A stretch of 64,000 nt of DNA from Verrucomicrobiia bacterium (GTDB lineage Bacteria > Verrucomicrobiota > Verrucomicrobiia > Palsa-1439): assembly GCA_022072455.1 (NCBI GenBank), contig JAJVHY010000001.1, positions 76,990 through 140,989 of the forward strand, read 5' to 3'. Each line of letters opens with the position of its first letter. The stretch's first letter is position 1. Positions 5,302 to 64,000 of the stretch are shown piece by piece. The notes under the pieces were generated by a model. It worked only from the letters and a program-made list of their open reading frames with translations, was not told where the DNA came from and searched no databases. The translations under genes and the position numbers were made by a program.

Positions 5302-5373
5302 CTGTTGTGTCTCCCTCTCCTCATGACCGCACCTCAATCGGAACAGGACAATACCCCGCCCAACAACACAAGT

Positions 5374-9420: not shown

Positions 9421-9762
9421 TTTACGAGAAAAAAGCCCCTTTCATATACCTCGTCTCACACAATGATAAAATATCTACGTCGCGCACCCGGGCATGTCAA
9501 GCCAAACGGGCCACGTCCGAAGATCAACCAGAACGGTTCCCCTCCAAAGTGGAACTGTGTTTCAAGTACGAACGCGAGAATAGCTTCTAAACACTGGAAG
9601 AGATTCTCGCCGATGCTTTCGGCGTAGACATTGCGGAGGATTTTCCGTGCCTCATTTCCTGAAGTGTTATTTTGGCGATGTCGCTGGTTGGGACTACCCG
9701 CCGGGGGGTTCAAAGGCCGGCTAGATTCATCGAAATCTCCGACGACATCAAAATGTGAGCGG
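9421..9762 (-). promoter_or_regulatory. Long (~340 bp), comparatively AT-richer leader/promoter region upstream of PEP-CTERM gene 2.
   Basis: Intergenic region between the rhomboid-like stop (TAA at 9763-9765, reverse strand) and the gene-2 ATG (9418-9420). No convincing ORF; the small ORF 9456..9713 (-) was rejected. Confidence 0.3.
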
Positions 9763-10469
9763 TTAAGGCGCTAAGCGCGTTGTGGTAGGCCACCGGAAAA
9801 TCAAGGCCAATCCGACTCCGGCAATCACCCCGCCGGCATGAGCGACGTTGTCAATTCGCGGTTCCAACCCGCCGATCACCAAGTCCGCCAGCACGATCAG
9901 ACCCAACACCCGCAACAAGTGCCGGCGCGCCGCAGCCAAGATCGCTCCGCGCAACCGGTACACCGTCACCCCAAACGCGCCGACCAGTCCAAATACCCCG
10001 CCACTCGCGCCACCGCCAACCGCGCCTGCATCGCCGCGCCGAGTGTGCCCCAGGATTCGACGCCCTCGTAAAACGCAATCGCCGCCGGCCACTGTTGCGT
10101 CCCGGTCAACGACCACAACCGCCACAAACGGATCTCACCACGCAACGCCCCCGGCACCTCCGCCGTGTCGGGCGGCTCCGCGGCGCCGCACCGCGCCACG
10201 CGACGCCACCGTTGCGCCGCCGGTAACCGTCCGGCTTTTGCACACCGCACCGCTTGCCGGTTGGCGAGCCGGGGCAACACGATCAGGACCAGAAACAAAC
10301 CCCACGCCCACGCCGCAGCACCGGTAAACAACGCCGCCACTGCCGCCACGAACACGACGAGATGCCGGAGAATCGGCACGACCAACCAGCGCGACGCTTC
10401 GCGCAGCAGCAGCAGTGCCGGCAACGCCGTCAGGATCACCAACGGATAGACCCAAAGCCGGTCGGTCAC
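9763..10469 (-). pseudogene. Rhomboid-family intramembrane serine protease, apparently split by a frameshift (real or a sequencing artefact).
   Basis: ORF 9763..10125 (-) carries the catalytic GxSG motif (GGGASGGVFGLVGAFG) and the His motif (NVAHAGGVIAGVGLALIF) about 51 residues apart, i.e. TM4-TM6 of a rhomboid. The overlapping ORF 9966..10469 (-) in another frame encodes hydrophobic helices of TM1-TM2 type. Their combined length (~235 aa) equals a normal rhomboid core. Only 2 bp separate its start from the upstream L,D-transpeptidase stop. Confidence 0.4.
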
Positions 10470-12263: not shown

Positions 12264-13154
12264 ATGTATCGGCTGACTTTTCAGTCCCGCGACGCAACCC
12301 GCGCCCCGTTCACCGGCGACGCGGCCCCCGTCACCATTGGCCGCGCGGCCGGCTGCACCCTCCAACTCACCGCGGCCGGCCTCCACGACCACCACGCGAC
12401 CCTCGACCGCCGGGCCGACGGCTATTACCTCCGCGACCTTGTTGGCAGTCGCACCGTCCGCGTCAACGATCAGGCGATCAACGACCACCGGCTCAGCAGC
12501 GGTGACGAGATCGAGATCGGCGCTGTCCGCATGCACTTTCACATCATCCACGACACCCCCGGCAGCCGCCGCGCGTTCGACATCTGGCAAGCCGTGGCCG
12601 GCGCTGCCGTGCTCCTCCTGGTGCTCGGTCAAATCGGGTTCTTGGGCTGGATCTTCGCGCAACCGCATCCGCGCAACATGAAACTCGACATCGTCAAAGG
12701 CAAACAAGCCAAAGCCCTGAACGCCGCCCCGGTCGTCCCGCCGCCCACTGAGCCGGTCCCGCTTGCACCACTCGTCCCGCTCACCCCCGCTCCCGCCGTT
12801 GCCGCCCCACCGCCTGTCTTGAACCGGCAACTCAAAATCACCCGCGTTGACCGCGTGGAAGGCCGCGCCGACGTCACGTGGCGCATCCAAATCAAAGCCC
12901 AAGTCCGCGACCGGCAGCTCGATTCATCCGCCGTCCAGATCATCGTCCACTGCTACTCCGCGGGAAACCAGTTGATCGCCACACAGGAAGCGCCGCGCCC
13001 AGCCGCGTGGGAAAATTTCTCCAGCAAACAAATCCCGGTCCGCGTCAACCTCGCCCCAGCCCGCTGCGCCGGCTGCGTGGTGCGCACGTACTACCGGCAA
13101 CAATTACAGGACATCTGGGCGTCGGCGCCAGCACTGGCGACACCCGCCCCGTAA
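12264..13154 (+). CDS. FHA-domain protein with a central TM segment and a Pro/Ala-rich linker.
   Basis: N-terminal FHA signature (VTIGRAAGCTLQL...HATLDRRADGYYLRDLVGSRTVRVNDQAI...LSSGDEIEIGAVRMHF), then a TM helix (AVAGAAVLLLVLGQIGFLGWIF) and a PPPTEPVPLAPLVP linker. Confidence 0.75.
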   Translation: MYRLTFQSRDATRAPFTGDAAPVTIGRAAGCTLQLTAAGLHDHHATLDRRADGYYLRDLVGSRTVRVNDQAINDHRLSSGDEIEIGAVRMHFHIIHDTPGSRRAFDIWQAVAGAAVLLLVLGQIGFLGWIFAQPHPRNMKLDIVKGKQAKALNAAPVVPPPTEPVPLAPLVPLTPAPAVAAPPPVLNRQLKITRVDRVEGRADVTWRIQIKAQVRDRQLDSSAVQIIVHCYSAGNQLIATQEAPRPAAWENFSSKQIPVRVNLAPARCAGCVVRTYYRQQLQDIWASAPALATPAP

Positions 13155-13161
13155 CAATCTT

Positions 13162-14604
13162 ATGGCCGAAAACCTCGTTGGTCGGACTCTGGGTGCCTAT
13201 CAGATCGAAGCCGAAATCGGCGTCAGCCGGTGGGGCGGTGTTTACCGGGCCACCCAAAGCTCGATGAACCGCACCGTCGCCCTCAAGACCGTCTCCGCCG
13301 AAATGGCCGCTGTCTCGGGCCGCACCACGCATTTCCTCGAAGAAATGCAGGCCGCCGCCCAGATCTCCCACAGCAACATCGTCACCATCTACGAAGCCGG
13401 CTGCATCGACGGCATCAACTTCTGCGCGATGGAATACATCAACGGCCCCGCCCTCGCCGATTTCCTCCGCAACGGCAAAGTTGTCGACGAACAACACCTC
13501 CTCCAAACCATACACAGCGTCGCCCGCGCCCTCGATTTCCTCTGGCAAAAGAAAATCCCCCACCAACCCCTCGAAGCCAAAAATATCCTCGTGGACGCCC
13601 GCGGCACTGTCAAACTCATCAACGTCCTCCCCCTCGACAACATGCCGGTCGAATCCATGAAAGACGATATGCTCACCGTCGGCCTCGTCCTCGCCAACCT
13701 CGCCAACAGCATCAGCCCCGTCACCAAACGCACTGGCGAACTCGTCGAACGCATGGTCGCCGCCGCCGGCCGCAAACCCTTCATCTCCCTGGCCGATCTC
13801 GCCCAAACCGCCGCCGACCTCGAACGCGAACTCTTCCCGCCGCCGTCCGCGGCCGGAGCCGCCACCCCCGCGCCCGAGAAAAAGATCAACAAAGTCGGCC
13901 TCGTCCTCGCCATCCTCGTCGGCATCGCTTCGGCCAGCGGATTGTATTGGTGGCGCACCGCCGCCCTCCGCCAACCCCCACCGGTCACCCGGCCCGCCGA
14001 CTTCGGCACCATGGCCCGCGTTCCCGGCGGCACCGTCGGCAAAAAGAACGTCAAAGACTTCTTCCTCGACCGCTACCCGGTCACCATCGGCGACTACAAA
14101 ATATTCCTCGACGCCGTCACCGCCGGCGTCACCCTCAAGGAACACACCTTTGCCCCCCGCAAAAAAAATCACACTCCCGACAACTGGGACAAAATCCTCG
14201 CGGGCATCCAACAGGGCCGCCCCTTGGATGTCGGCAATCGCCAGCTCTGGCTCACGTGGGATTCCCCGGTCATCGGCGTGGATTGGTACGACGCCTACGC
14301 CTACGCCAACTGGCGCGGCAAGCGGTTGCCCAGTGACGAAGAATGGGACCGCGCCACCCGGCAATCCACTCAGACACCCGCGCCGGCCCCCACCAATCAA
14401 ACCGAAGTCTACGCCAACCCGGCCGATAAAAGTCCGGACGGCATCAGCGGACTCACCGGCAAACTCAGCCAATGGATCGGCACCTCCCCGACCCATTCCA
14501 CCGCCATCATCCGCGGCGGCAGACAATCCCGCACCGAAATCAACCGCGAAACCCGGTCCGACACCGTCGGATTCCGTTGCGCGGCGGACAAAGAAGTCAA
14601 GTAA
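13162..14604 (+). CDS. Ser/Thr protein-kinase-like domain (degenerate; predicted pseudokinase), TM helix, and C-terminal FGE-sulfatase (formylglycine-generating-enzyme-like) domain.
   Basis: Kinase subdomains are recognisable (G-rich loop IGVSRWGGVY, VALK, HSNIVTIYEAG) but the catalytic loop reads HQPLEAKNILVD instead of HRDxxxxN, and no DFG is found. TM helix VGLVLAILVGIASASGLYWW. The C-terminal FGE domain has ...GVDWYDAYAYANWRGKRLPSDEEWDRA...GFRCA. Confidence 0.75.
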   Translation: MAENLVGRTLGAYQIEAEIGVSRWGGVYRATQSSMNRTVALKTVSAEMAAVSGRTTHFLEEMQAAAQISHSNIVTIYEAGCIDGINFCAMEYINGPALADFLRNGKVVDEQHLLQTIHSVARALDFLWQKKIPHQPLEAKNILVDARGTVKLINVLPLDNMPVESMKDDMLTVGLVLANLANSISPVTKRTGELVERMVAAAGRKPFISLADLAQTAADLERELFPPPSAAGAATPAPEKKINKVGLVLAILVGIASASGLYWWRTAALRQPPPVTRPADFGTMARVPGGTVGKKNVKDFFLDRYPVTIGDYKIFLDAVTAGVTLKEHTFAPRKKNHTPDNWDKILAGIQQGRPLDVGNRQLWLTWDSPVIGVDWYDAYAYANWRGKRLPSDEEWDRATRQSTQTPAPAPTNQTEVYANPADKSPDGISGLTGKLSQWIGTSPTHSTAIIRGGRQSRTEINRETRSDTVGFRCAADKEVK

Positions 14605-52260: not shown

Positions 52261-53513
52261 GCGCCCTCCTCTGCGGCGCCGCCGAAGCCGACTTCACCCC
52301 CGCTCCCGGCCTGCAACTGCTCGGGCAGATGCACCAACGCATTGCGAAATACAAACGCGATCCGCTCACCGCCAACGCCATCGCCTTCCGGCAAGGCCGC
52401 GAGACCGTGGTGCTGGTGTCTGTCGACATCTGCATGCTCAATGACGCGTTCGTCCGCCGGGTCCAAAAACGTTTCCCGCACCGGCTGTTATTACACAGCA
52501 CACACACGCACGTCGCGCCCACCGTGTTTGATTTACTGACGGCCCAGGCCGATCCGCATTTCGTCCGGGCCGTCGAAGCCGCGATCCTCGCTTCCGCCAA
52601 ACACGCCATCAAGAATTTGAAACCCGCCGAACTCTTCAGCGGCACCGGCCAGATGGACCAAATGGGCTGGAACCGCCGCGCCATGTTTCGCGATGGCACA
52701 AGCCGGATGTACAGCAATTCCACGCAACGTGGTTTCATCGGCCTCGAAGGCCCGCGCGACCCGGCCCTGCCGGTCTTGTACATCCCCGGTCAGGCCGTCC
52801 TCGTCAATTTTGCCACTCATCCGAATTGCCTCGAAGGCGATTCCTTCTACAGCGCCGACTTGCCGGGGGAAGTCCGCCGGCAACTCAAAGCTGCGCTGGG
52901 TGAAAAGGTCGTGGTCGTCTATCTCACCGGCGCTGCCGGCAACACCGCCCCGAGTATTCTCGATCCGTTCGAGCCGAAACAACCATGGCGCGGTGAAGCC
53001 GGTGTCAGACGTTCCGGCCAATACCTTGCCGGCGAAGCCTTGACAGTCATCGCCAGCGCGGTGCAGCCGATGAAATCGCCGCGATTACGCGTTGTCCAAA
53101 CACAACTGCCGATCCCGGTTCGTCCCTGGCCAAAGGCCGGCTCGATTACCGATCCATTCCCGCGCCTCGCCAAATGGAAGCCGGCCCGAAAATATTACGA
53201 AGATTCCCAAGCCAATTGGCCGCCCCCCGCCGCGCCGGTAATGCTGAATGTCATCCGCATCGGCGATACGGTGATCTGCACGAACCCAGCCGAGCTGTTT
53301 GTCGAGTTCGGTTTGGAAATCCGCCGCAACTCCCCGGCGCGCGTCACATTCATCAGCGAACTCACCGACGGCTACTGCGGCTACGTCTGCACCAAGAAAG
53401 CGTATTCGCGCGGCGGGTATGAAACATGGCCGGCCCCGACGAGCAAGCTCGCGCACTCGGCCGGGCCGCAGTTCGTCGCAGCAACGCGCAAGTTGTTGAA
53501 GCGCGCTTTTTAG
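52257..53513 (+). CDS. Neutral/alkaline ceramidase-like family protein (paralog 3 of 3).
   Basis: Internal Met at 52257 (ATGA overlap; the track ORF start 51942 overlaps the upstream gene). Blocks collinear with 27254/28618 (LLGQMHQRI..., LLHSTHTHVAP, SELTDGYCGYVCTKKAYSRGGYE). Confidence 0.5.
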   Translation: MSALLCGAAEADFTPAPGLQLLGQMHQRIAKYKRDPLTANAIAFRQGRETVVLVSVDICMLNDAFVRRVQKRFPHRLLLHSTHTHVAPTVFDLLTAQADPHFVRAVEAAILASAKHAIKNLKPAELFSGTGQMDQMGWNRRAMFRDGTSRMYSNSTQRGFIGLEGPRDPALPVLYIPGQAVLVNFATHPNCLEGDSFYSADLPGEVRRQLKAALGEKVVVVYLTGAAGNTAPSILDPFEPKQPWRGEAGVRRSGQYLAGEALTVIASAVQPMKSPRLRVVQTQLPIPVRPWPKAGSITDPFPRLAKWKPARKYYEDSQANWPPPAAPVMLNVIRIGDTVICTNPAELFVEFGLEIRRNSPARVTFISELTDGYCGYVCTKKAYSRGGYETWPAPTSKLAHSAGPQFVAATRKLLKRAF

Positions 53514-54229
53514 TCGGACAGCGTTTCGGAGTTCTGCCGGTTGTAGACCTGATAGTATTTATCGAACCATTCGCGCGGGGTCTTTGGATCAGACGGCAAA
53601 TCGGACAAAGGACTGCGCCGGGCGATCAGCGCGGTAAGGAGGCCGCTACTAAAGTAACCGCTGTAATGACTGCGAAGCGAGATCCCCTGATTGTCCACTG
53701 CGATTATTTTAGCAGTGATGTTCTGAGGCAGCGCGCCGGCCACTCTGGCCCATTCCGGGAGATCAATGAGGAAAACAATTGCAGCAACATCGGCGTGTCG
53801 ATTCAGAATCTGTTTCAGGGCCGCACTGGAGCAGCCCGACACCATCGGTTCGTCGGGATCAAACTCGACTACCTCAGAGCCAGCAATCGTGACTCCTTTC
53901 TGCTGCTTCAATTCGGCCTGGAAGGCTTCCCACCGGTAATCCCGTGGCACGTCCACGCCCACCGGATCGTGATCTGTAACGATGATGAGCCGGCCTTGAT
54001 GATGAACGGCATCGAGTGTTTCCCTGGCCAACGCTTCGCCGATGCCCGCAGCCGCGCCGATGATGGGAGCGCGGTCGATCTTGTGTGTGGCCGGCTGGAG
54101 TCGCCGCCAAATGGAAGCCAGCGCGATCACAAGTACCAGAGTGGCGACGACGACTAGAATTTTCCGTTGCACGAGGTCAGTTGGGGTATGACGCACCGGG
54201 GTATTGGTTGTCATACCATTGAGTTTCAC
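53510..54229 (-). CDS. Hypothetical membrane-anchored protein, last gene of the PEP-CTERM/pseudopilin operon.
   Basis: 239-aa ORF with an N-terminal TM helix (ILVVVATLVLVIALASIW). The true start is probably downstream of 54229 to avoid overlap with the DUF1559 gene. Confidence 0.4.
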   Translation of the reverse strand: MKLNGMTTNTPVRHTPTDLVQRKILVVVATLVLVIALASIWRRLQPATHKIDRAPIIGAAAGIGEALARETLDAVHHQGRLIIVTDHDPVGVDVPRDYRWEAFQAELKQQKGVTIAGSEVVEFDPDEPMVSGCSSAALKQILNRHADVAAIVFLIDLPEWARVAGALPQNITAKIIAVDNQGISLRSHYSGYFSSGLLTALIARRSPLSDLPSDPKTPREWFDKYYQVYNRQNSETLSD

Positions 54230-55283
54230 CGCCGTTAGAGGACACGTTCAAAACTCCCTTGCCATCGGTCCAGAACAGACCACCGGGCGTGCCGTTGGGC
54301 CCGGTTCTATGCATATCCTTGCTGTACTGCAGTAACGTCGTTTTGGTGACGCGATCAACGTGGCCATCCACAAAGAGCACGTTCATGCCCAGATTGTGCC
54401 AAGCCGCGACAAAGGCATTGCAGTCGTTTCGCAACCAAATTCGTGGGTCAGGGTTGACGCCGGTCCAAGCGATGTTCCACGCATTCGTCACCTGCAAAGG
54501 AGTCAGTCCGGTGGCTCCTCCATAGGGAAGCGTGTACCCCCACGCGCCGCCGTTCGCCTGCCCCCATGGGTTCGCCAAGCCAAATGACGAACCATCGAGG
54601 GGAATTTCGCCGAGCAGCATTGCCGAGCTGCCGTAATTGAGGTCGCTCATGTTGACACGCCGCGACCAATTCTGGGGACTGGTGGGACCCGCACCACAAC
54701 TACTGGCGCCGCCGCAGCGCCAGGTCAGCGGGAAAAGATCGAGGTTCATCTGATAGTTGCTCGCCGAGAGCCGGTAACCGCCGCCAGGATAGCGCCAGGC
54801 GTTCGCCGGGCATTGGAGCAGCTTCGAGTAGGATGCATAGGTCGAGGTGACGCTCGAAGGACAACACCCGCCAATGCCACACGTATTGCATGCAATCCGC
54901 TTTTGCAGCACGCTCAACGGGCAACCCAAATACGGTGCAATCACGTAGTTCCAGCCGCCGGCGTTCTTGGTTGGGTCGGAGCTGGTGACGCAATACGCCG
55001 TGCCTTGATAGGTGGGACAGTACGATTCGCCGTTAGCGCCGGGCGCGTTGGTGCAAGCGCATTCGGGGTTAGCATAGGGATAGGCGCCATTATTGTCGTT
55101 CAAGTATCCCGAGAAACCCACGCCGAGTTGGCGTTCGTTATTGGCGCACTGTGCGTCTTTGCTGCGCGCCTTGGCTGTGGCGAGCGCCGGCATGAGCAGG
55201 GCCGCCAAAACGGCGATAAGAGTGACCACCACCAACAGTTCCACAAGCGTAAAGCCCCTTTGGAACAACGGTCGCTTTTTCAT
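54177..55283 (-). CDS. Prepilin-type N-terminal cleavage/methylation-domain protein with DUF1559 (H-X9-DG) C-terminal region.
   Basis: Internal Met at 55283: MKKRPLFQRGFTLVELLVVVTLIAVLAALLMPALA (class III signal with the G-F-T-L-V-E motif). Cys-rich middle. C-terminal NVLFVDGHVDRV. Confidence 0.8.
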   Translation of the reverse strand: MKKRPLFQRGFTLVELLVVVTLIAVLAALLMPALATAKARSKDAQCANNERQLGVGFSGYLNDNNGAYPYANPECACTNAPGANGESYCPTYQGTAYCVTSSDPTKNAGGWNYVIAPYLGCPLSVLQKRIACNTCGIGGCCPSSVTSTYASYSKLLQCPANAWRYPGGGYRLSASNYQMNLDLFPLTWRCGGASSCGAGPTSPQNWSRRVNMSDLNYGSSAMLLGEIPLDGSSFGLANPWGQANGGAWGYTLPYGGATGLTPLQVTNAWNIAWTGVNPDPRIWLRNDCNAFVAAWHNLGMNVLFVDGHVDRVTKTTLLQYSKDMHRTGPNGTPGGLFWTDGKGVLNVSSNGGETQWYDNQYPGASYPN

Positions 55284-55284
55284 G

Positions 55285-55974
55285 TCACCGTCCGAAATTC
55301 GCAATGTCGTCCACCGCGCTGAGCCGGTTGGTCCACATCGGATTATACCACGGGTAAATATTGTAGCCGCACACCCCGGTCAAAATGAAAACGCCCCCCG
55401 GAATATATGTGAAATGATCTGGGCCAAACGACCACAAGTCGAAGCTGGCGACGTTCACTTGTCCACCGCGCACAGAGCCAACGTTCTGAGCGTTAGTACT
55501 CAGGCATGGATTCATGTTGGTGAAGGCCGTGCTGGGTGAGTTGTAATAAATGAATGGCGTCCCCCAAGCATCGCAAATGTTGATCGGGGCGACACCGGTA
55601 ATGCCCGTCAACGCGTCGGAAATGCCGGATAGATTTTTCTGCAACTGGTTGGGAGGAAATTTCAGATAGGCTTTTTGACCGCCGACACTGGACAGCGAGG
55701 TGTAGAGCAGCCAATTGTTGGTGGCCTGCCAAAATCCATTCGCTGAAAGCCGAATCGGAGTGGTGACGGGATAATAACCCCAGTCGCTCTTATAACTATC
55801 CAGCGCGGCTTCGATGGCACCGATCTGACTCTGAGTCGCCGTGATCGCCATCCGTTTCTGCGCATAACTGGAGATGCCAATGGTAACTGCGGCCAAGAGC
55901 AAAACGATGAGAATCACCGTCATCAATTCGATCAGTGTGAACCCCCGCCGGCAAAAGTCGCGCCGGCTGGTCAT
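55285..55974 (-). CDS. Type II secretion/type IV pilus-like pseudopilin (GspG-like).
   Basis: Internal Met at 55972-55974 overlaps the giant-gene stop (ATGA). MTSRRDFCRRGFTLIELMTVILIVLLLAAVTIGISSYAQKRMAITATQSQIGAIEAALDSYKSDWGYYP is the prepilin leader plus the conserved Glu at position 5 of the mature pseudopilin. Confidence 0.7.
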   Translation of the reverse strand: MTSRRDFCRRGFTLIELMTVILIVLLLAAVTIGISSYAQKRMAITATQSQIGAIEAALDSYKSDWGYYPVTTPIRLSANGFWQATNNWLLYTSLSSVGGQKAYLKFPPNQLQKNLSGISDALTGITGVAPINICDAWGTPFIYYNSPSTAFTNMNPCLSTNAQNVGSVRGGQVNVASFDLWSFGPDHFTYIPGGVFILTGVCGYNIYPWYNPMWTNRLSAVDDIANFGR

Positions 55975-58900
55975 TGTGCCGTTCCTGAATGCGAGCGCCT
56001 CCGCCGCGCGATCCACATCGTCAGCATTCCGCCCAGACACAACAGCAACATGCTCGGCTCAGGCACCACGCTTACCGGCGTCTGACCCGAAACAACTCCA
56101 AACTCCATCACATATCCGCCCGGCACGAATGTCGAACTCGCCACCGTTTGCACGTATGCGAGTGTTCCGCCTCCGTGCACGACAAAAGTCGCGTTCGCCA
56201 GCCGGCCATCGAAGTTGCCGGCTTGGTCGGTGTAGAAACCGCCGCGGAAAACATTCGTGACGCCGTCCACCAGCGCCGTCTGTATGTACAAATCCACCAC
56301 ATTCACGCCGGTCAGGTTGGCCGTGAACGGCGCAGCATTCGTGAGCCGCAGCACGTCATTGAAACTGCTGTAGCTCGCCAGATTCAAACTCGTAAACTCA
56401 AAACTGAAATCCATACCCAACGTCGGGTCCACTGCCCCGGCCGTTAACACCCCCGGACTGCTTCCCGGCGCGACCCGCCCTGCCCCGCTCAACGCCCGGG
56501 CAATTACGCCCGTCCCACCCAACGTCGTCCCGCCCGCCAAAACAAACGCACCATCGCCGGCTACCTGACCATTCACCACCAGCGTCCCGGCATTCACCGT
56601 CGTGGCGCCGCTGTACGTGCTGTTGCCGGCCAATACCAACGTGCCGTTGCCCGTCTTGCTCAATCCGCCGTTCGACAAAGCCCCGAGCAACGTCGCTGTC
56701 CGCACCACTTGCACCGTGCGCACGCCGCTGTTCAAATCAATCGCGTTGGCAAAGTAAACATCCCCATTCGCGGTGCTGGAACCGAAGATCAACGCACTCC
56801 CATTCGGCACGAATGCGCCCGCGCCCCACATCAACGGCGCGCCGCCGCTCAGGTTCACGACCAGACTTCCGCCGGCCGCGCTGAACCCGCCGCTGCCCGT
56901 CCATTGCACCGCCCCGGCCACCGTCCCGGTTGCCCGCACGAAATTGCCCGCGGTCTCCAGCACGCCGCCGGTCAACTTCAGATTGCTCGCCGTCGGCAAC
57001 CCCACGCCATCCGTCGCCCGCAACGTGCCGCTCACGATTTCCGTGATGCCGCTATACGTATTGGCGCCGGTCAGCGTCAGCATGCGCGGGCCTTGTTTGA
57101 TCAGACCCAGTGTGCTGTCCGAACCGCTGATCACGCCGTTGGCGATCATGTTGTTGCTCGCGGTATTGAAGCCGCGTGAACCGCCCTCCAACACCTGCGG
57201 CAGATTGATGGTCTGCGTGTTCGCGCTGAGATTGACCACGTTGCCGACGAGATTGACCGCATTCGTCCCCGCCGCCATGCCGTTGAGCACGAACGCCCCG
57301 GCGCTATTGGTGAACACGATCCCGGCAAAGCGCGTGTTCGACGCAAAATTGTTCGTGTTATTGACCTTCGTATTCCCGTCGAAAAGCAATCGATCAAACT
57401 CAACCGGGGCCGGGCCGCTGCCCCCACCCCAGTTCGCCGCGTTGGTCCACCACGTGTCGCCCATGGGCGACCCCGGATTCCAGCCGCCGTTGGTGCCGCC
57501 GATGGTCAACGTCACAAACCCGCCCGCCACCCCGAAATTGTAGATCCGATTGTTCGCCTGATTGCCGACAGTGAACGCGGTGACCCCGGTCCCGCCGATG
57601 CTGCCGGTATATTGAATGAGGTTGTACACGCCCGCCGCGTCGAAGCGCACCGTCGAGTTGTTCGTGTACAGCAGCACCGTCCCGCCATTGATGGTCAAGC
57701 CGCCGGAGTCGGTGACGCTCAGTTTGTCGTTGTTCATGCCGCTCGTGAGAAATTCAAACGGCAAATAGCCGCCGTTCAACGTCAAAACGCCCATCGTCAG
57801 CGTGTCGAGGCTGTCGTTGCCGGCGGTGAGCGTGCCGGCATTGAGCGTCACGTGGCCGGCAATCGTCCCGGTGCCGCTGATGAATCCGCCCGCGCCGGTC
57901 ACCGGACCGGCGACGCCCGTGCCGCTGCTGTTGTTCACCACGAAGTTCCCGTCGCTGTTGACCGTCACCGGCGCCAAGCTCCCCAAGCCGACGCCCGCGC
58001 TGTTGGCAATCGCGAGCGTCCCGGCATTGACGGCGACCGGCGCGGAGAAGGTGCTGTTGCCGGATAGAGTCACCGTGCCGCCCTCTTGTTTGATGAGTTG
58101 GCCGGCGTCACCGACGATTGGACCATTGAGGTTGAAGGTGTTGCCAGCCTCGGCGCTGAGGCGGATCATCCCGCCGATCAACGTGTTCGTGACGGTCGCG
58201 CCGAGCGTGGCGTTGTTGCCCTTGAGAGCGGAATTCGTCACCAAGTTGATGCCCTGGAAGAATTGGTGAGTGCCGTTGCCGAGTTGCAGCGTGGCGTTGT
58301 TGACGCCGTCGCCGACGACAAACGCGGTGCCGTTGCTGTAGGTGCTGCCGGTCAGACCGAGGGTGCCGGCATTGAGCACGACGCGGTTGCCGGCGGTGGT
58401 GGTGATCAGCGAGGTGGCCCAGAACTGGCCGCCATTCAAGACCAGCGCATTGGTGCGGGCGGTGCCGACGCCAATGGTGACGGTGCTGATGTTGGTGACG
58501 ATCCCGCCGGCCCCGATCACCAACTGGTTGTTTGTCGCAACACCCGTCGTCGCGCTCCCGATCGTCAGCGAATTATTCCCGAGCGTCCAAACACTCACAG
58601 CGGTGCTGCCGCTGATGGTCGCTGTATTATTGTTCGCATTCGCGCTGATGCCATTGCCAATGATGACGGCCCCAGCGGAACTGACGCTGCCGCCGTTGGC
58701 GATCACGAGGCTGTCCCAACTTTCCTGTTCGCCGACCGTCAACGAACCGACGTTGCGCAGAACCGCACCGCCGACCACTCCATTGCCGTCCACAAGCAAT
58801 TGATTGGAGCCGATCAACGAGCTGCCACCGCTACCGGAGCCAATCCGGAAATGTTGGGCCGCGTTGTCCCAAACCGAAGTTCCACCACCACTGCCGCCGC

Positions 58901-61900
58901 CCACAATAATTACTGCGTTGGACCGCGCACCATTCGCACCGATTGTCGTTACCGAGGAGCCGCCGCGCGCCACTTTGCCGCCGTTGGTCACGATCAACGA
59001 GTTGTTATAGGCATTGACCGAATTCACTCCGACGTTGATCTGTGCATTGGTCAAGACCGCGCTGCCGGTAATGCCGATGCCATCCACCACCAACGAATTC
59101 GATACCCCGCCAGCGCCCGACCCGACATAAACAAAACGCCCACCGACGTCCCAGCGACTCGGGCTGGCGGCGGTGCCGCCACCCATAATTTGGACGGTGT
59201 TGCTGCCAGCAGCAAACCCGACGTACGCGTCCGCCGTGGCTGCGGTCGTGCCAAACACTCGCCCGCCGTTGGAAATCACCAATGAGTTGAGCGCCGCACC
59301 GTTCGTTCCGACCACCAAGCTACCGTTCACAAACAAGCTGCCGCTGTTCTGAACAGTCAGCGAGTTGCCGATCACGTTGCCGGCGCCGACCGTGAGCGCA
59401 GCGGCGTTCGTCCAATACGAGCCCGTGCCGGTAATGAGCGCCGCTTGATTGCTCCAGCCCCGGCCCAGTGTGTAGGCAATGGAACTCGCAACCGTTCCGT
59501 TGCTGACAGTGAGCGAGTTGGTGCCGATCGCCGAGAGATTCGCCAACGTCAATGTCCCGCCCGAGCCATCCACGAGCACCTGCCCGGTAAATGTATTCGA
59601 GCCTTGGAGGACCAGGTTGTACGCGCCGCCCATTGTCAGTTGGCCAGCGCCGGTGATGTTGCTCGCCAAGATGGCGCTACCGGGCCCCGGTCCGCGAAAC
59701 GCAGTGTCAGCGGCGAGATTGAGCGCGTTGCTGATGATGAAGAGACCGCCGCCCTGTTGGTAAAGCAACGGCGTGGTACCGGCGAACTGGATGGTACCGC
59801 CCGTGAGCGTATTGGTGCCAGTCGAAGCACTGGCGAGGACAATCTGGTTGAGTTGGAAGGTGCCAGCCGTGTCGTTCGATGACGTGTAGCTCGTGGCGCC
59901 GGTCCCGCCAAACTTCAGAATCCGGGCCGGATCGGATGTCGGGCCGGCGAGGTTATTCGTCCAATTCGCGCCAACGCTCCAAGCGCCGGTCGCGCCATTG
60001 CTCCACACAAAGTCGGGCGTGATGCTCAGAGCGGAATAAGTCAGGTAGAGGTTCGCCCCAACCAAGGCCACGCCCCAACTCCCCGGTGCCGGCGCTCCAC
60101 CGATATTGAACGCGTTGGTGTTGACCTGGAAGTCTGATGAGTTGAATCCTGTCTGACTGCCAAAATTCACGAACGCCAGAGTGTAATCGTTGGAAGCGTT
60201 GAAATTAACGGCTGCAGCGGAGTTGCTCATGGAATCGAGATTGACGATGAACGGGTTGCCGTTCGGATTGATCGTCAGCGCGCCGGTGACGTTGAGTAAA
60301 TCCCAGCTTGTGCCGGCGGTGCCGGTGAAGTTTGTCACTTCCAACTGAAAGAAACTGCCGCCATGCCACGTCACATTATCAACTGTGAGCAGGCCGGGAC
60401 TGTTACCGGGCGCGAGCGTGGCGCCGTTGGTGATGACCACACTTTGGCCGCCGCCGGTCAGGAGCGTACCGACTCCCTTGAGCGTGGCATTGCTGCGGAT
60501 CAATAAACCATTGGCGAAGATTTGCGTCCCGACGAGGCTTTGCAGTGTCGCGCGTTGCACGCCGTCGCCGACCGTGAAGACCTGATTGCTGACAAAGGCA
60601 TTCGCCACGCTCAGCGTGCCGCCGTTGAAAAGGATTCGATTCAGGCTGTTGGTGAGCCGCAGGGTGCCGATGTTGGTGATGGCGGCGGTGCCCTCCAAAC
60701 GCAGGACGTTGCCGGTGGTGGCGTTGGCGCCGACCGTGAGCGCGCCGGCCAGCATGTTCCACGTCGTGCCGCTCAGGACGGTGACGGTGTTATTGGAAGA
60801 ATTGGCGCTGCCGATGGTCAGGCCGCCGCTCACGACATTGGCGTTGCTGACCGTCATGGTGTTGAAATCGTTTCCGGCCCCCGCGCCAACTGTGATGAGG
60901 CCGATATTGGAGAACGTGGCACTGGTCACAGTGACCATGTTACTGTTGTTGCCCATACCGAACTGCGACACACCCACGTTGAGCGCGCCGCCGTTGTAAA
61001 ACGTGGCGGCATTCGTGACATCCAGCCAGTTGCCACCGTTATTCGTCACGGCACTACCGGTATGGCTGGCGAGTGCAAAAGCAGAGCCGGTGCTGTACCA
61101 AAGCGAATTCGTGCCGGTCACACGGATGATGTTGTTCCCAGCATAGGTCAGGCTGCCCAGCCCGGTAAACCCGGTGTTCGTGACCACCCCGCCATTGGTG
61201 ACGAGGAATAGATTGTTCGAGCTTGGTGCGGCACCGGACGTGCCACCGCCGATCTGGAAAGCACCCATGACGAGCAAGCCGCCATCGGTCACGGTGACAA
61301 TGTTGCTGCCTCCACCGTTGCTCCCCGAGTTGTAGCCCAGCACCAAGTTCCCAGCTCGGAACACGGAACCGGTTCCGGTCACAGTCAGTTGATTATTGGC
61401 AGTCCAACCCGACTTCCAGCCCAGCGCCCACTGACCGGCGAAGTTCGCCGCGCCGCCATTGCTGATAATCAGGTTATTCGCGTAGCCTCCGGCACCGGAT
61501 GCGATGGCCACTCGGAGGAGACTGTTGGAACCGGTGACCCAGATCGTGTTCGAACTTCCCCCAGTAAACTCAATCTGCCCGGACGATCCGAATTGACCGC
61601 CATCGGCCACCATGAGCGAGTTGCCGGAGCCGCTAAATGTCATCGTCGTGGTGTTGCTGAATGCGCCGCCGGTGGTAATCAGCATCAAATTACTCGTGCC
61701 GCCAATGATCTGGCGCGCGCCGGTCCCGCGCGTAGCCAACCACCCACCATTTGTCACGATCAAGCTGTTGCCGGTCGTCCCACCGACGGTGACGGTGCCA
61801 AAGTTGGTAACGATCCCGCCATTGATGGTCAGGACGTTACCGGTTGCGGAGCCAGATCCGACCGTCAGACTCCCGGCATTGCCGTCCCAAACCGTGTCGG

Positions 61901-63560
61901 CCAGTACCGTGAGTAGATTATTCGACGATCCGTTGCCGACTGTAGTGGTTGCGCCCGCCTTGGTACTGACGACTTCGTTGCTTAGGCGGAGCGTGGTGTT
62001 TCCGCCGCTGACGGTGAAATTTCGCGTAGTCAGATTGCCACCGGCCAGCGTTAGCGTCCCAGCGGTTACCGTAACTCCTCCGCCCACGGTGTAGTCATTG
62101 GTAAGAGTCAGCATCGCGCTCCCAGATTTTTGCAGACTGCCCATGCCGGATATCCCGTGCGCGTAGGTGAGATTGGCAGTGGGAGAAAGGATGACGGTAC
62201 CGTTGTTGATGGTGATATCGCTGGACCACAAGCCCGCATTGGAGAGGACCAACGTTCCGGCGCCTATCTTGGTCAGTCCACCGCCGCCAGAAACCTCCAC
62301 GGCGATCGTCCCGGTGTTGCCGCTGATCATGTACAGCAGCGCTTCGGCAGTACCGAACGCCAGCGAAGCGGGCGCGCCGCCGTTGGTGATGCTGGCGCTG
62401 AGAATCATCCCAGCGGTCGTGCCGTCGCCAATCGTGAGTGTGTTGCCGTTGAGATTGATGTTGGCCACGCTCTTGAGCGCGTACGCCTGTTGATTGGCCA
62501 ACAACGTGGTGGAGACCCCGTTGCTGACGATGTTGGCTGCGCCGAAACTGGTTGTATACATCGCGTTCGTCAGACCGTTCGCGCCGTTGGACACGAAGTC
62601 ACCGCCTTTGGCGTTGGTGACCAGCCAAGGGGCCAGGATGCCGTTGATGAGGTTCGTGCCGTCGGTGAAGAAGATCTTCTCACGCACCCCCAGGCTATTC
62701 GCGGGAAGAACGATCAGAGTTCCCAAGCCTGTGCGTGCCAGTGTGGCGGCGTTCAGGGTATTGGTGACGTTGGCGGTCGCATTGTTTAACTGCAAGGTGG
62801 CCCCGCCGGTGACGGTCAGATTGCTAATGGTCGTGGTGGTGTTGACGGCACCGGCGTTCACGTTCAACGTGGCCGTCACAATCGAAAACGATCCAGCGTT
62901 CGACGGCGCCACTGTGCCGATCTCGATGGGGCCTGTGCCCAACACCGTCCCGCCGCCGCTGCCGGTTAGCGTGCCGTTATTGATCACCAACCCGCTGCTG
63001 AAGCTGTTGGCTCCGTCGGCCAGTGTCAGCGTATAATCGCCGACTTTCGTCCACAGGGCGTCGGCGCCGCTGACGCGACCGTTGATGGTCGTCGTATAAC
63101 CAACGGTCCACGTCTGGGTCGCGCTCAAAACGATGTCATTGTTGAACGTTACGACCGCCGCATCGAAGGTACTAAAGAAGCCACCGGCGCCATTCGTCAA
63201 CGCTCCGGAACCGGGCATGAAAACGACGCGGCCATTGACGGTTGGGCCGAACGTCAGCGAGTTGGCAGAGACACTGAACACCGTCACGGTGGCGATTGGA
63301 GCAAGGCTGACACCTGTGTTGAAAACCGCGTCATTGCCGTTGGTCCAAGTGCCCGGCGTCGTCGTCCCGATGCTGAGGCTCGACCAAGCATTGGAAGATA
63401 CCGACCATCCCACGTTGGTGGATGTTCCCTGAATGCCACCGGCGATTCCGGTATCCCAATATTGCGTCGCCGCCCTCGTCCCCGGCCCGGCTGAACTGCA
63501 GAACGCAGCCCACGCCACCAGGACTATGCGGAAGAACAGCGGCAGTTGGATACGATTCAT
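55971..63560 (-). CDS. Giant (2529 aa) secreted PATR (autotransporter-associated beta-strand) repeat protein with a C-terminal PEP-CTERM signal.
   Basis: Signal peptide MNRIQLPLFFRIVLVAWAAFCSSAG. Dozens of G-x-L-x-x-x-G/NTYSG-type repeats (LTLTGANTYSGITEIVSGTL; LVLAGNSTYSGATTVNAGTL). The C-terminus ...VPEPSMLLLCLGGMLTMWIARRRRSHSGTAQ is a PEP-CTERM. Confidence 0.85.
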   Translation of the reverse strand: MNRIQLPLFFRIVLVAWAAFCSSAGPGTRAATQYWDTGIAGGIQGTSTNVGWSVSSNAWSSLSIGTTTPGTWTNGNDAVFNTGVSLAPIATVTVFSVSANSLTFGPTVNGRVVFMPGSGALTNGAGGFFSTFDAAVVTFNNDIVLSATQTWTVGYTTTINGRVSGADALWTKVGDYTLTLADGANSFSSGLVINNGTLTGSGGGTVLGTGPIEIGTVAPSNAGSFSIVTATLNVNAGAVNTTTTISNLTVTGGATLQLNNATANVTNTLNAATLARTGLGTLIVLPANSLGVREKIFFTDGTNLINGILAPWLVTNAKGGDFVSNGANGLTNAMYTTSFGAANIVSNGVSTTLLANQQAYALKSVANINLNGNTLTIGDGTTAGMILSASITNGGAPASLAFGTAEALLYMISGNTGTIAVEVSGGGGLTKIGAGTLVLSNAGLWSSDITINNGTVILSPTANLTYAHGISGMGSLQKSGSAMLTLTNDYTVGGGVTVTAGTLTLAGGNLTTRNFTVSGGNTTLRLSNEVVSTKAGATTTVGNGSSNNLLTVLADTVWDGNAGSLTVGSGSATGNVLTINGGIVTNFGTVTVGGTTGNSLIVTNGGWLATRGTGARQIIGGTSNLMLITTGGAFSNTTTMTFSGSGNSLMVADGGQFGSSGQIEFTGGSSNTIWVTGSNSLLRVAIASGAGGYANNLIISNGGAANFAGQWALGWKSGWTANNQLTVTGTGSVFRAGNLVLGYNSGSNGGGSNIVTVTDGGLLVMGAFQIGGGTSGAAPSSNNLFLVTNGGVVTNTGFTGLGSLTYAGNNIIRVTGTNSLWYSTGSAFALASHTGSAVTNNGGNWLDVTNAATFYNGGALNVGVSQFGMGNNSNMVTVTSATFSNIGLITVGAGAGNDFNTMTVSNANVVSGGLTIGSANSSNNTVTVLSGTTWNMLAGALTVGANATTGNVLRLEGTAAITNIGTLRLTNSLNRILFNGGTLSVANAFVSNQVFTVGDGVQRATLQSLVGTQIFANGLLIRSNATLKGVGTLLTGGGQSVVITNGATLAPGNSPGLLTVDNVTWHGGSFFQLEVTNFTGTAGTSWDLLNVTGALTINPNGNPFIVNLDSMSNSAAAVNFNASNDYTLAFVNFGSQTGFNSSDFQVNTNAFNIGGAPAPGSWGVALVGANLYLTYSALSITPDFVWSNGATGAWSVGANWTNNLAGPTSDPARILKFGGTGATSYTSSNDTAGTFQLNQIVLASASTGTNTLTGGTIQFAGTTPLLYQQGGGLFIISNALNLAADTAFRGPGPGSAILASNITGAGQLTMGGAYNLVLQGSNTFTGQVLVDGSGGTLTLANLSAIGTNSLTVSNGTVASSIAYTLGRGWSNQAALITGTGSYWTNAAALTVGAGNVIGNSLTVQNSGSLFVNGSLVVGTNGAALNSLVISNGGRVFGTTAATADAYVGFAAGSNTVQIMGGGTAASPSRWDVGGRFVYVGSGAGGVSNSLVVDGIGITGSAVLTNAQINVGVNSVNAYNNSLIVTNGGKVARGGSSVTTIGANGARSNAVIIVGGGSGGGTSVWDNAAQHFRIGSGSGGSSLIGSNQLLVDGNGVVGGAVLRNVGSLTVGEQESWDSLVIANGGSVSSAGAVIIGNGISANANNNTATISGSTAVSVWTLGNNSLTIGSATTGVATNNQLVIGAGGIVTNISTVTIGVGTARTNALVLNGGQFWATSLITTTAGNRVVLNAGTLGLTGSTYSNGTAFVVGDGVNNATLQLGNGTHQFFQGINLVTNSALKGNNATLGATVTNTLIGGMIRLSAEAGNTFNLNGPIVGDAGQLIKQEGGTVTLSGNSTFSAPVAVNAGTLAIANSAGVGLGSLAPVTVNSDGNFVVNNSSGTGVAGPVTGAGGFISGTGTIAGHVTLNAGTLTAGNDSLDTLTMGVLTLNGGYLPFEFLTSGMNNDKLSVTDSGGLTINGGTVLLYTNNSTVRFDAAGVYNLIQYTGSIGGTGVTAFTVGNQANNRIYNFGVAGGFVTLTIGGTNGGWNPGSPMGDTWWTNAANWGGGSGPAPVEFDRLLFDGNTKVNNTNNFASNTRFAGIVFTNSAGAFVLNGMAAGTNAVNLVGNVVNLSANTQTINLPQVLEGGSRGFNTASNNMIANGVISGSDSTLGLIKQGPRMLTLTGANTYSGITEIVSGTLRATDGVGLPTASNLKLTGGVLETAGNFVRATGTVAGAVQWTGSGGFSAAGGSLVVNLSGGAPLMWGAGAFVPNGSALIFGSSTANGDVYFANAIDLNSGVRTVQVVRTATLLGALSNGGLSKTGNGTLVLAGNSTYSGATTVNAGTLVVNGQVAGDGAFVLAGGTTLGGTGVIARALSGAGRVAPGSSPGVLTAGAVDPTLGMDFSFEFTSLNLASYSSFNDVLRLTNAAPFTANLTGVNVVDLYIQTALVDGVTNVFRGGFYTDQAGNFDGRLANATFVVHGGGTLAYVQTVASSTFVPGGYVMEFGVVSGQTPVSVVPEPSMLLLCLGGMLTMWIARRRRSHSGTAQ

Positions 63561-63658
63561 TGCAAGACGTCAGCTCACCGATTGTTTCACTTCGCCCTCA
63601 TATTACATACGTCTCGAAGATTTGGCGTTCCGCTGGTGATTATGATAAGGAAACGAAC

Positions 63659-64000
63659 ATGTCACGAATGCCGAAGAATTCAGCCTCGGGACGGGAAACA
63701 TTCTGGTTCGCCATTCCCGGTCTGCGGTACCTCGGCCGCTCCTACACCGAAACCGCTTGGCCGCCGCTACCGCCCCACCTCTATCCCCCCAGTACAATGG
63801 GGCTGTTCTTCATCGCAAAAGGCAAACAGAATTTCCGGGTTGACCAAAAAGATTACCTCGTGCACGGAGGGGAAATCTTCGTCGTCTTTCCGAACGAGTG
63901 CCACAGCTCGGGCGGCGTGGCGATGGAGAAAAACCTCTTCTACTGGATGCAGATCGACCTCCCCATCGTCTGCCCCGCTCCCCAACCACTGCCGGACGTC
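63659..64000 (+). CDS. AraC/XylS-family transcriptional regulator, N-terminal cupin-like effector domain. Partial at the right edge.
   Basis: Own translation MSRMPKNSASGRETFWFAIPGLRYLGRSYTETAWPPLPPHLYPPSTMGLFFIAKGKQNFRVDQKDYLVHGGEIFVVFPNECHSS..., open to the window end. Cupin-like pattern typical of AraC N-domains. The family call is weak. Confidence 0.4.
   Translation, partial: MSRMPKNSASGRETFWFAIPGLRYLGRSYTETAWPPLPPHLYPPSTMGLFFIAKGKQNFRVDQKDYLVHGGEIFVVFPNECHSSGGVAMEKNLFYWMQIDLPIVCPAPQPLPDV

Follow-up and report, generated by a model that had tools for sequence, protein, structure and literature searches.

A pseudopilin-DUF1559-membrane protein cassette in Verrucomicrobiota and its association with a giant PEP-CTERM protein

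Organization of the operon

On the minus strand of the window (the whole 64-kb stretch of DNA that was analysed), a gene for a giant PEP-CTERM protein directly precedes genes for two pilin-like proteins. Does this arrangement reflect a module built for the giant, as a preliminary description proposed, or a unit that exists independently of it? Four genes are closely packed here: the giant (55971..63560, 2529 aa), an optional leading gene of the operon; gene A (55285..55974), encoding a GspG-type pseudopilin of 229 aa; gene B (54177..55283), encoding a DUF1559/H-X9-DG pilin-like protein of 368 aa; and gene C (53510..54172), encoding a single-pass membrane protein of about 220 aa. The TGA that ends the giant (55973-55971) and the ATG that starts A (55974-55972) overlap in the sequence ATGA, and B starts at 55283, 1 nt past the stop of A. 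The coordinates thus bear out both the ATGA overlap at 55971-55974 and the 1-bp spacing that had been described. Junction distances are -4 nt (giant/A), +1 nt (A/B) and +4 or -38 nt (B/C), the last depending on the start of C: the annotated ATG at 54214 overlaps B by 38 nt, and homologues start at the equivalent of the GTG at 54172, 4 nt past the B stop, with the gene ending at 53510. Scans for promoters and terminators between the operon genes gave nothing above shuffled controls, in agreement with the tight operon claimed earlier. The giant, A, B and C are one operon, divergent from a gene for an AraC-type regulator.

The regulator gene (63659..64000, plus strand) runs off the window, so that only its N-terminal part is present (AraC_binding PF02311, E=2.6e-5). 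The 98-nt divergent intergenic region (63561..63658) is the presumed promoter/operator; no match to the sigma-70 consensus was found in it. It contains the 8-mer GAAGATTT at 63616-63623. The same 8-mer occurs once each in two other cassette loci, L003 and L101, both times in the AraC/operon intergenic region, which makes it a putative operator. AraC genes occupy the same divergent position in these two loci, with two such genes in L101.

A and B are the only two pilin-motif ORFs in the 64-kb window. None of the large ORFs in the window showed an ATPase, platform or secretin domain, as the preliminary description had stated in calling this a non-canonical type II secretion (T2SS) or type IV pilus locus, and no prepilin peptidase was found in the window.

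Properties of the encoded proteins

The giant has a Sec-type signal peptide and a low-complexity beta-helical body rich in G, T, A, N and S, and belongs to the PATR repeat proteins (PF12951, 78.4 bits against a cut-off of 27, in five stretches; TIGR02601, 68.2 bits against 19.85). Residues 2499-2522, VVPEPSMLLLCLGGMLTMWIARRRRS, match the PEP-CTERM model TIGR02595 (20.3 bits, cut-off 16), and the C-terminus runs from PEP motif to transmembrane helix to a basic (Arg) cluster, as in a sorting substrate. Pfam PF07589 does not list this domain, nor does it list the PEP-CTERM proteins of Verrucomicrobium (PMC1569441). A classical autotransporter was considered and rejected, as the Pfam scan returned no barrel family and the C-terminus is a PEP-CTERM anchor. 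In signal peptide, body and C-terminus the giant resembles the PEP-CTERM/exosortase system (PMC1569441); that system, however, is described with no link to pilin-like genes, and the window, 64 kb of the genome, contains no exosortase among its ORFs and no EPS genes.

The leader of A, MTSRRDFCRRG/FTLIELM, is a class III signal peptide (G-1, F+1, E+5), and canonical class III leaders were present in all copies of A and B. A also shows GspG motifs and matches a PulG profile, and its top fold hit is EpsG. Two structure models were of modest confidence (pLDDT 70 and 65); the predicted model of A is closest to EpsG/PulG. The leader is shared with T2SS pseudopilins (GspG major, GspH-K minor), and the motifs and model suggest a likeness to GspG in the globular domain as well. 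The N_methyl, T2SSG and TIGR01710 matches, however, are confined to the N-terminal 62 residues. TIGR01710 reaches 49.4 bits, below its cut-off of 88.85, and aligns with no more than residues 10-71, short of a full-length equivalog, and PF08334 scores 22.9 bits against 21 with no single stretch passing alone. A further differs from T2SS pseudopilins in two insertions in its globular domain, in being multi-copy and variable, and in having a DUF1559 protein and C as partners in place of GspH-K. It stands outside any gsp operon: none with ATPase, platform and secretin surrounds A in the window or in the related loci examined.

B passes the curated cut-offs of both PF07596 (25.6 bits against 23.3) and TIGR04294 (H-X9-DG; 22.5 against 19), confirming its earlier assignment; it has a pilin leader, and its H296 and D306 do not vary across the subfamily alignment. 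It thereby resembles the DUF1559/H-X9-DG families of Planctomycetota and Verrucomicrobiota, which have expanded massively and whose function is unknown (PMC8567305), but belongs to a small, distinct, long subfamily (330-400 aa, about 22 full-length clusters) that has a fixed place in a three-gene cassette. No such arrangement has been described for the family. Beyond the N-terminal helix, B showed no similarity to solved structures by sequence or profile. The Verru_Chthon proteins A-D (TIGR02596, TIGR02599 and relatives) likewise form a repeated multi-gene pilin-like cassette in Verrucomicrobia, but membership of B was rejected (19.7 against a cut-off of 70 and 15.6 against 256.5, N-terminal helix only) and A and C had no match at all, which indicates a different cassette.

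C has one N-terminal hydrophobic helix, an ambiguous membrane orientation (K/R 2.9 vs 2.3 on the two sides) and no match in Pfam or NCBIfam; its family is unnamed and comprises about 540 clusters. In the predicted model its alpha/beta domain is Rossmann-like and looks like a single lobe of a type I periplasmic sugar-binding protein, and the C protein of locus L001 has a weak Peripla_BP_4 match. Assignment to the type I periplasmic binding proteins (Peripla_BP_4) was rejected, as neither a two-lobe fold nor an above-cut-off Pfam score was obtained. Distant homologues without pilin genes (L014, L011) lie beside a sugar-binding protein, an ABC ATPase and a histidine kinase. The earlier label of membrane-anchored hypothetical holds for the anchor; it does not convey that C is the most diagnostic member of the cassette.

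Conservation of the cassette in other loci

At least 16 complete A-B-C triads, all with this gene order, were found in eight contexts, in loci drawn from few metagenomes that are not phylogenetically independent. All named sources are Verrucomicrobiota. Junctions within triads range from -29 to +26 nt; between B and C the distance is -4 to +15 nt in almost all of them. Tandem arrays of three to five triads occur in L004, L018, L100 and ERZ1426827. AraC/GntR regulators or catabolic enzymes adjoin the triads in almost every context, and SSF or MFS transporters lie near cassettes in L013, L004 and L100. B-C pairs without A occur in L013 and L015. The majority of triads have no giant (L003, the four arrays, L006 and L007). 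The conserved unit is A-B-C, and the giant is not part of it; within a clade of uncultured Verrucomicrobiota the cassette is a unit in its own right, amplified to as many as five tandem copies. It provides a concrete starting point for understanding the DUF1559 pilin-like proteins of this phylum, which are so far unexplained.

Divergence between conserved flanks

The window was compared with the orthologous locus L001 of a relative. Amino acid identity is 78-85% for the flanking genes and 65-77% for the giant, but only 47-49% for A-B-C. Nucleotide identity is 77-93% up to the stop of the giant (86-93% in its 3' end), 33-69% across A-B-C and 79-89% from the stop of C, with sharp breakpoints. 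The window triad is nearer to the first triad of the L004 array than to its own positional ortholog; for B, identity is 71% to the former and 50% to the latter. Since A-B-C at 47-49% lies between flanks at 78-85% with sharp breakpoints, the alignments indicate that the cassette was exchanged as a block. Pairwise divergences of the three genes are correlated, strongly so for B and C (Mantel; B-C r=0.77, A-B 0.43, A-C 0.48; all p<=2e-4). This is in keeping with inheritance as a unit, but is also a pattern that linkage alone can produce.

Proposed function and alternative explanations

The reading that we favour, at slightly less than even odds (roughly 45%), is a nutrient-regulated cassette of pilins and a cognate accessory protein that uses machinery encoded elsewhere. 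The regulator would sense a product of the adjacent degradative genes, upon which A and B would be made and processed by a prepilin peptidase encoded elsewhere. C may help to load them onto a general type II secretion or type IV pilus-like machine, likewise encoded elsewhere; assembly of A and B is assumed, since the window holds neither the peptidase nor an ATPase, platform or secretin. The outcome would be a short envelope filament with variable heads, for which we infer a role in exoprotein secretion, display or capture of polymeric substrates. In this locus the same transcript would also deliver the giant beta-helical surface protein as a co-regulated, not obligatory, partner. A precedent comes from Verruconatronum, in which a PulG-like pilin encoded in an alginate-induced operon accounts for 0.51% of the proteome with alginate as substrate and for 0 with others (PMC13274419 Table S3).

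The module proposed in the preliminary description, in which A, B and C would specifically recognise the giant and secrete it across the outer membrane or display it, we consider unlikely. The 4-nt overlap is kept in L001 and recurs independently in L101, where a 1141-aa PEP-CTERM beta-helix gene precedes A, B and C; beta-helix proteins are also encoded upstream of the B-C pairs in L013 and L015. Only 7-8 such beta-helix genes occur in 262 kb of cassette loci, and four of them lie directly upstream of a cassette. The route of PEP-CTERM proteins across the outer membrane is, moreover, unknown (PMC1569441). Most triads, however, lack a giant. Furthermore, the cassette was swapped while the giant was kept, so that the supposed cargo and supposed adaptor do not co-vary; replacement of the cassette beside a retained giant and retained flanks argues against its being dedicated to recognising the giant. 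That the genes adjoin by chance, without functional link, is hardly credible. Both families are strongly expanded in this phylum (V. spinosum has 65 PEP-CTERM proteins, PMC1569441, and Verruconatronum has 67 PulG-like paralogs, PMC13274419), but the 64 kb contain just two pilin-motif ORFs and these lie side by side, A and C come from small, specific families, and coupling to the giant is kept between orthologs about 20% diverged. Chance adjacency is already contradicted by the conserved synteny of the triads.

It is also possible, though doubtful, that B and perhaps C are substrate binders, pilin-anchored or polymerised, that retain polymer or oligomers at the envelope for neighbouring enzymes and transporters in the manner of a bindosome or SusD. 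The predicted sugar-binding-like fold of C, the weak match in L001, the catabolic/CAZyme setting near SSF or MFS transporters, the resemblance of the arrays to tandem susC/D pairs and the abundance of the alginate-induced pilin-like protein are all consistent with capture, as are archaeal sugar-binding proteins, which carry class III signal peptides and use a pilus-like system for assembly (PMC3047682). C, however, is only one lobe with a glycine-rich loop that is not conserved, the globular domain of B showed no similarity to binding proteins, and the cassette differs between loci whose enzymes are 78-85% identical, which is unexpected if it sets substrate specificity. We would assign similarly limited credence to A-B-C being the Verrucomicrobial (through DUF1559, PVC-wide) counterpart of SusC/D or the bindosome, building a glycan-capturing envelope filament; the nutrient-regulated, swappable, pilin-anchored binding subunits and cognate binding-protein-like helper that this entails are no less speculative. 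If true, it would explain the expansion of DUF1559 to dozens or hundreds of copies across degradative loci. Very unlikely, in our view, is that no filament forms and that A, B and C remain inner-membrane proteins, joined in a sensor or co-receptor complex in which the pilin leader is an anchor only. DUF1559 proteins do fractionate with membranes in Tuwongella (PMC8567305), and the histidine kinases and sugar-binding protein beside distant C homologues would suit such a role. A nevertheless retains E+5 in an N-terminus of the GspG polymerisation type and has apparent GspG motifs in its globular domain, and the local regulator is of the cytoplasmic AraC type, not a membrane sensor.

Comparison with known systems

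The archaeal bindosome (Sulfolobus, Bas system; PMC3047682) shares with the cassette pilin-type leaders in sugar-utilisation contexts and a possible binding-protein-like component. It belongs, however, to another domain of life; the A-B-C operon has no ABC transporter, and binding by B or C is putative.

For a nutrient-regulated pilin and accessory cassette, the closest parallels are found in the pilin-accessory cassettes of P. aeruginosa (pilA groups I-V, TfpO/W/X/Y/Z; PMC11841053), in which TfpX/Y/Z are membrane proteins of about 240 aa with variable periplasmic domains. In both systems a gene for a cognate membrane accessory protein (about 220-245 aa) with a variable domain, periplasmic in the Tfp proteins and presumably so in C, directly follows the pilin gene or genes, strongly differing alleles are block-exchanged between conserved flanks, and the assembly machinery is encoded elsewhere. 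C resembles TfpY in lying directly downstream of a pilin gene and in being exchanged with it as a block, with sharp borders. By structure, a TfpY-type assignment was rejected: C has one transmembrane helix in place of the three N-terminal helices of TfpY, a binding-protein-like lobe in place of the TfpY fold, and no detectable homology. Unlike the P. aeruginosa cassettes, A-B-C has no intergenic terminator and pairs a GspG-type pilin-like gene with a DUF1559 one, and it is tandemly amplified and placed in catabolic loci under AraC/GntR control.

Operon structure and gene products

Four closely spaced ORFs occupy positions 53510-63560 on the minus strand, beside a divergent AraC-type gene that starts at 63659 on the opposite strand, 98 nt from the start of the giant. 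The giant (63560..55971, minus strand; 2529 aa) is a PATR/PEP-CTERM protein, and its TGA stop (55973-55971) overlaps the ATG (55974-55972) of A, the GspG-like pseudopilin. The gene for B, the DUF1559/H-X9-DG pilin-like protein, starts at 55283, 1 nt past the stop of A, and is followed by that for the single-pass membrane protein C (53510-54214, minus strand). The deposited start of C, ATG 54214, yields 234 aa and a 38-nt overlap with B. As all C homologues begin at MQRK, equivalent to GTG 54172 in the window (220 aa, 4 nt after the B stop), the start in the annotation probably lies too far upstream.

Promoter and terminator scans between the operon genes gave no signal exceeding shuffled controls, and Rfam and tRNA scans returned no matches. 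A and B, both with prepilin-type leaders, were the only pilin-motif ORFs in the window, and Pfam scans of all large window ORFs detected no pilus or secretion ATPase, platform or secretin. The preliminary description, which had reported the four genes, the overlap of giant and A, the 1-bp gap before B and the lack of an ATPase, platform or secretin in the window, was accurate in every detail. PADLOC returned zero matches, and a reading as a defence system was rejected on that basis.

A (229 aa) has the class III leader MTSRRDFCRRG|FTLIELM. The GspG signatures ALxxYKxDxGxYP, DxWGxP, DLxSxGxD and DDIxNW are conserved in its family, with two insertions between them, and the family profile aligns with PulG residues 1-63 and weakly with the DIFSLGPDG segment of PulG. 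A scored under the GspG equivalog cut-off (49.4 vs 88.85 bits); judged by its sequence, it is GspG-derived and not a housekeeping GspG. B (368 aa, cysteine-rich) scored above the DUF1559 and H-X9-DG cut-offs. This long subfamily has only about 22 full-length relatives in 5.8 billion clustered proteins, and matches beyond these were to the N-terminal helix only. Membership of a Verru_Chthon cassette was ruled out by model scores. In sequence and profile searches against solved structures, A and B matched by the N-terminal helix alone, and C had no significant match.

C (~220 aa) likewise had no Pfam, NCBIfam or PADLOC match. Exhaustive profile searching placed 540 representative clusters in its family with E<=1e-3 as the limit, of which 255 also passed E<=1e-10; almost all are stand-alone proteins of 200-270 aa. 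A structural model of modest confidence (pLDDT 70) has a single transmembrane helix and, after it, a Rossmann-like alpha/beta domain; membrane orientation is weakly indicated by charge (K/R 2.9 on the N-side vs 2.3 on the C-side). The motif GAAAGIG had suggested a dinucleotide-binding Rossmann protein, a candidate rejected because the glycine loop is missing in close homologues. A Peripla_BP_4 match of the C protein of L001, the orthologous locus of a relative, fell below threshold. The C family extends beyond the cassette: a genome scan with C found 8 distant loci, several with C alone or beside ABC or histidine-kinase genes. Two such loci contain distant C relatives (21-27% identity) and no pilin genes (L014 7538-12824 and L011 9941-13006). 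A Peripla_BP_4 sugar-binding protein and a double ABC ATPase directly precede C in L014, and a convergent PAS histidine kinase comes after C in both.

The giant has a Sec-type N-terminus, a body rich in G/T/A/N/S with five PATR matches (PF12951, 78.4 bits; TIGR02601, 68.2 bits) and a canonical C-terminal PEP-CTERM anchor, VVPEPSMLLLCLGGMLTMWIARRRRS (TIGR02595, 20.3 bits vs a cut-off of 16). No large internal duplication was found by self-BLAST.

A conserved three-gene cassette

Comparison with other loci established that the conserved unit is A-B-C, not the giant plus pilins. All-against-all BLAST and family HMMs resolved three distinct families in fixed order, with within-triad junctions of -29 to +26 nt and a canonical leader in every A and B. 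The window derives from a Verrucomicrobiae MAG (locus tags PCFJNLEI_00115-00117), and all named matches were from Verrucomicrobiota. L001 is syntenic with the window: a 2717-aa PATR giant overlaps A by 4 nt, B and C follow, and the same convergent ceramidase-like, PhyH, GDSL and URO-D genes lie downstream. At L003 a divergent AraC gene, A-B-C and a gene for a 731-aa protein are found without a giant; the window has no homologue of the 731-807-aa proteins that trail such cassettes. Other arrangements are A-B adjoining a melibiase (L006); GntR, a B-like gene, A, B and B adjoining a rhamnosidase (L007); a PEP-CTERM protein, a 1375-aa beta-helix protein, B-C-B-C, an SSF transporter and an alginate lyase (L013); and a giant-like 574-aa protein followed by B-C (L015). 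When metagenomes were scanned with the A alignment, none of 80 loci held a true A-B-C triad, the generic pilin N-terminus dominating the matches.

The L007 B-like DUF1559 gene (8496-10004) overlaps A by 4 nt and was called with a 190-aa N-terminal extension, which puts the pilin motif at residue 194; either the start was called wrongly or the protein is an unusual fusion.

Triads are also found in tandem arrays: five in L004 (2632-14634), four in L018 (2413-13164), at least three in L100 (9171-21149) and at least four in the ERZ1426827 contig. These arrays of 3-5 triads look orthologous. Downstream of every array come a ~740-aa protein and a GDSL esterase (and GH109 where the contig reaches), and L004 and L100 have MFS and oxidoreductase genes in common on their other flank. 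In two of the four, triads are separated by toxin-antitoxin, AbiEii and AAA_14-DUF4143 genes, with toxin-antitoxin and AAA_14 insertions in L100 and the ERZ1426827 contig. The triad-array region is dynamic.

Exchange of the cassette as a block

Amino acid identity between the window and L001 is 85% for a flanking 381-aa protein, 81% for the ceramidase-like, 80% for the URO-D-like and 78% for the GDSL protein, and 65-77% for the giant, vs 49, 47 and 48% for A, B and C. Nucleotide identity runs at 77-93% through the end of the giant gene, falls to 33-69% over A-B-C and returns to 79-89% exactly from the C stop. The transitions lie within the conserved leader/helix region of A and the conserved C-terminal tail of C, which from the alignment are plausible recombination anchors. 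The triad closest to that of the window is triad 1 of the L004 array (B, 71%), and the closest to that of L001 is triad 3 of the same array (B, 76%). Among 14 triads, divergence was strongly correlated between B and C (Mantel r=0.77) and also between A and B (0.43) and A and C (0.48), with p<=2e-4 for all three pairs. Together, the breakpoints, the L004 affinities and the correlated divergence indicate that the triad moves and diverges as a block. The B-C correlation is no proof of physical interaction, as linkage alone could yield it. Since the cassette was swapped while the enzymes and the giant were conserved, it is argued to set specificity for neither. The swap is compatible with an exposed structure subject to diversifying selection, or with a set of interchangeable cassette types.

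Association with the giant

The coupling of giant to A recurs. It is seen in L001 and also at an independent locus, L101, where a pair of AraC genes diverges from the gene for a G/T/N-rich PEP-CTERM protein of 1141 aa; A, B, C and PhyH follow, and here, too, the large gene and A share 4 nt. Across the cassette loci, 262 kb in all, 7-8 beta-helix genes were counted (~3% of genes), four of them directly upstream of a cassette, which suggests an association beyond chance, from few cases and related loci. The preliminary description had gone further and proposed a module dedicated to surface display or secretion of the giant. That interpretation is only partly supported: most triads have no giant at all, and cassette and giant do not co-vary, which speaks against a dedicated module. 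The link is real but facultative.

Beta-helix proteins without PEP-CTERM lie upstream of the B-C pairs of L013 (2500-6627) and L015 (7404-9128). Their C-terminal ends are similar (RFYRVRVLLP and RIYRVRTP, respectively) and may represent an unrecognised sorting or fold motif. Two PEP-CTERM paralogs in tandem (1325 and 1348 aa), whose C-terminal regions are almost the same (…NGLPVGYTVDYDYNGNQIAVILIPEP…), are encoded on the minus strand of the window at 1360-5337 and 5374-9420, a position unrelated to the pilin cassette.

Regulation and genomic context

The 8-mer GAAGATTT, a candidate operator on sequence grounds, is present in the AraC/operon intergenic region of the window (63616-63623), of L003 (9941) and of L101 (3106). 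It is the sole copy in L003 and in L101, and the L101 copy lies within the inverted repeat CAGAAGATTTTTTCTG. Its orientation relative to the operon in the window is unlike that in the others.

The operon end meets head-on a catabolic same-strand cluster of ~27 kb (26240-53513, plus strand), the distal part of which is syntenic in L001. Among its products are the esterases GDSL, SASA and BD-FAE, as well as GH1, sulfatase and CN-hydrolase proteins, together with Zn-ADH, two ceramidase-like and two URO-D-like proteins, PhyH, PQQ-like propellers and an EamA transporter. Other cassettes neighbour GH109, rhamnosidase, melibiase, alginate lyase, GDSL esterases and MFS/SSF transporters, with AraC or GntR regulators nearby. 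Elsewhere in the window, on the plus strand, an FHA-domain protein (12264-13154) precedes a Ser/Thr protein kinase that carries a fused FGE-sulfatase (formylglycine-generating-enzyme-like) domain (13162-14604).

Previous work offers related cases. In cultured Verruconatronum, a PulG-like pilin, one of 67 PulG-like paralogs in the genome, lies inside an alginate-induced lyase operon and accounts for 0.51% of the proteome on alginate, being absent on other substrates (PMC13274419). The planctomycete Tuwongella has a greatly expanded set of N_methyl+DUF1559 proteins, which are membrane-associated and often have genes for secreted proteins alongside (PMC8567305). Our literature search found no paper on the A-B-C cassette or on a PEP-CTERM/pilin-like gene link.

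Proposed function and comparison with known systems

Of the paralogous families of Planctomycetota and Verrucomicrobiota that still lack an explanation, the DUF1559/H-X9-DG pilin-like proteins form some of the largest. The locus bears on two open questions, namely uptake or secretion at the unusual envelopes of these phyla without SusC/D systems, and the path of PEP-CTERM proteins to the cell surface. It offers a compact, testable unit made up of two pilins, one GspG-like and one DUF1559, and a member of an unnamed helper family (~540 clusters), with a dedicated regulator, repeated amplification and exchange, and sometimes translational coupling to a PEP-CTERM giant. Its main interest is that the enigmatic DUF1559 paralog expansion gains a defined module open to specific experiments.

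The evidence is entirely computational and contextual, drawn from loci of a few metagenomes and from models of modest confidence. We propose that a prepilin peptidase would cut A and B and that both would then be fed into a type II secretion or type IV pilus-like machine whose genes lie elsewhere. C, the membrane protein that in this blockwise amplified and exchanged cassette always comes after B, would serve as their cognate accessory factor. The resulting filament might push out or display co-expressed exoproteins, the giant included, or it might hold substrate, as the archaeal bindosome does (PMC3047682).

The closest working analogue of A-B-C is the pilin-accessory cassette of P. aeruginosa, in which every pilin group has a membrane accessory protein of its own, ~240 aa long and variable in its periplasmic domain; this protein interacts with pilins and promotes assembly but is absent from the fibre (PMC11841053). 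Unlike that protein, C has one transmembrane helix and a different fold, and the comparison is therefore one of working alike, not of membership. The cassette is best described, as far as sequence comparison goes, as a new, swappable pseudopilin-plus-accessory unit, which in this lineage has come to lie downstream of a PEP-CTERM giant, with an AraC-type regulator in control.
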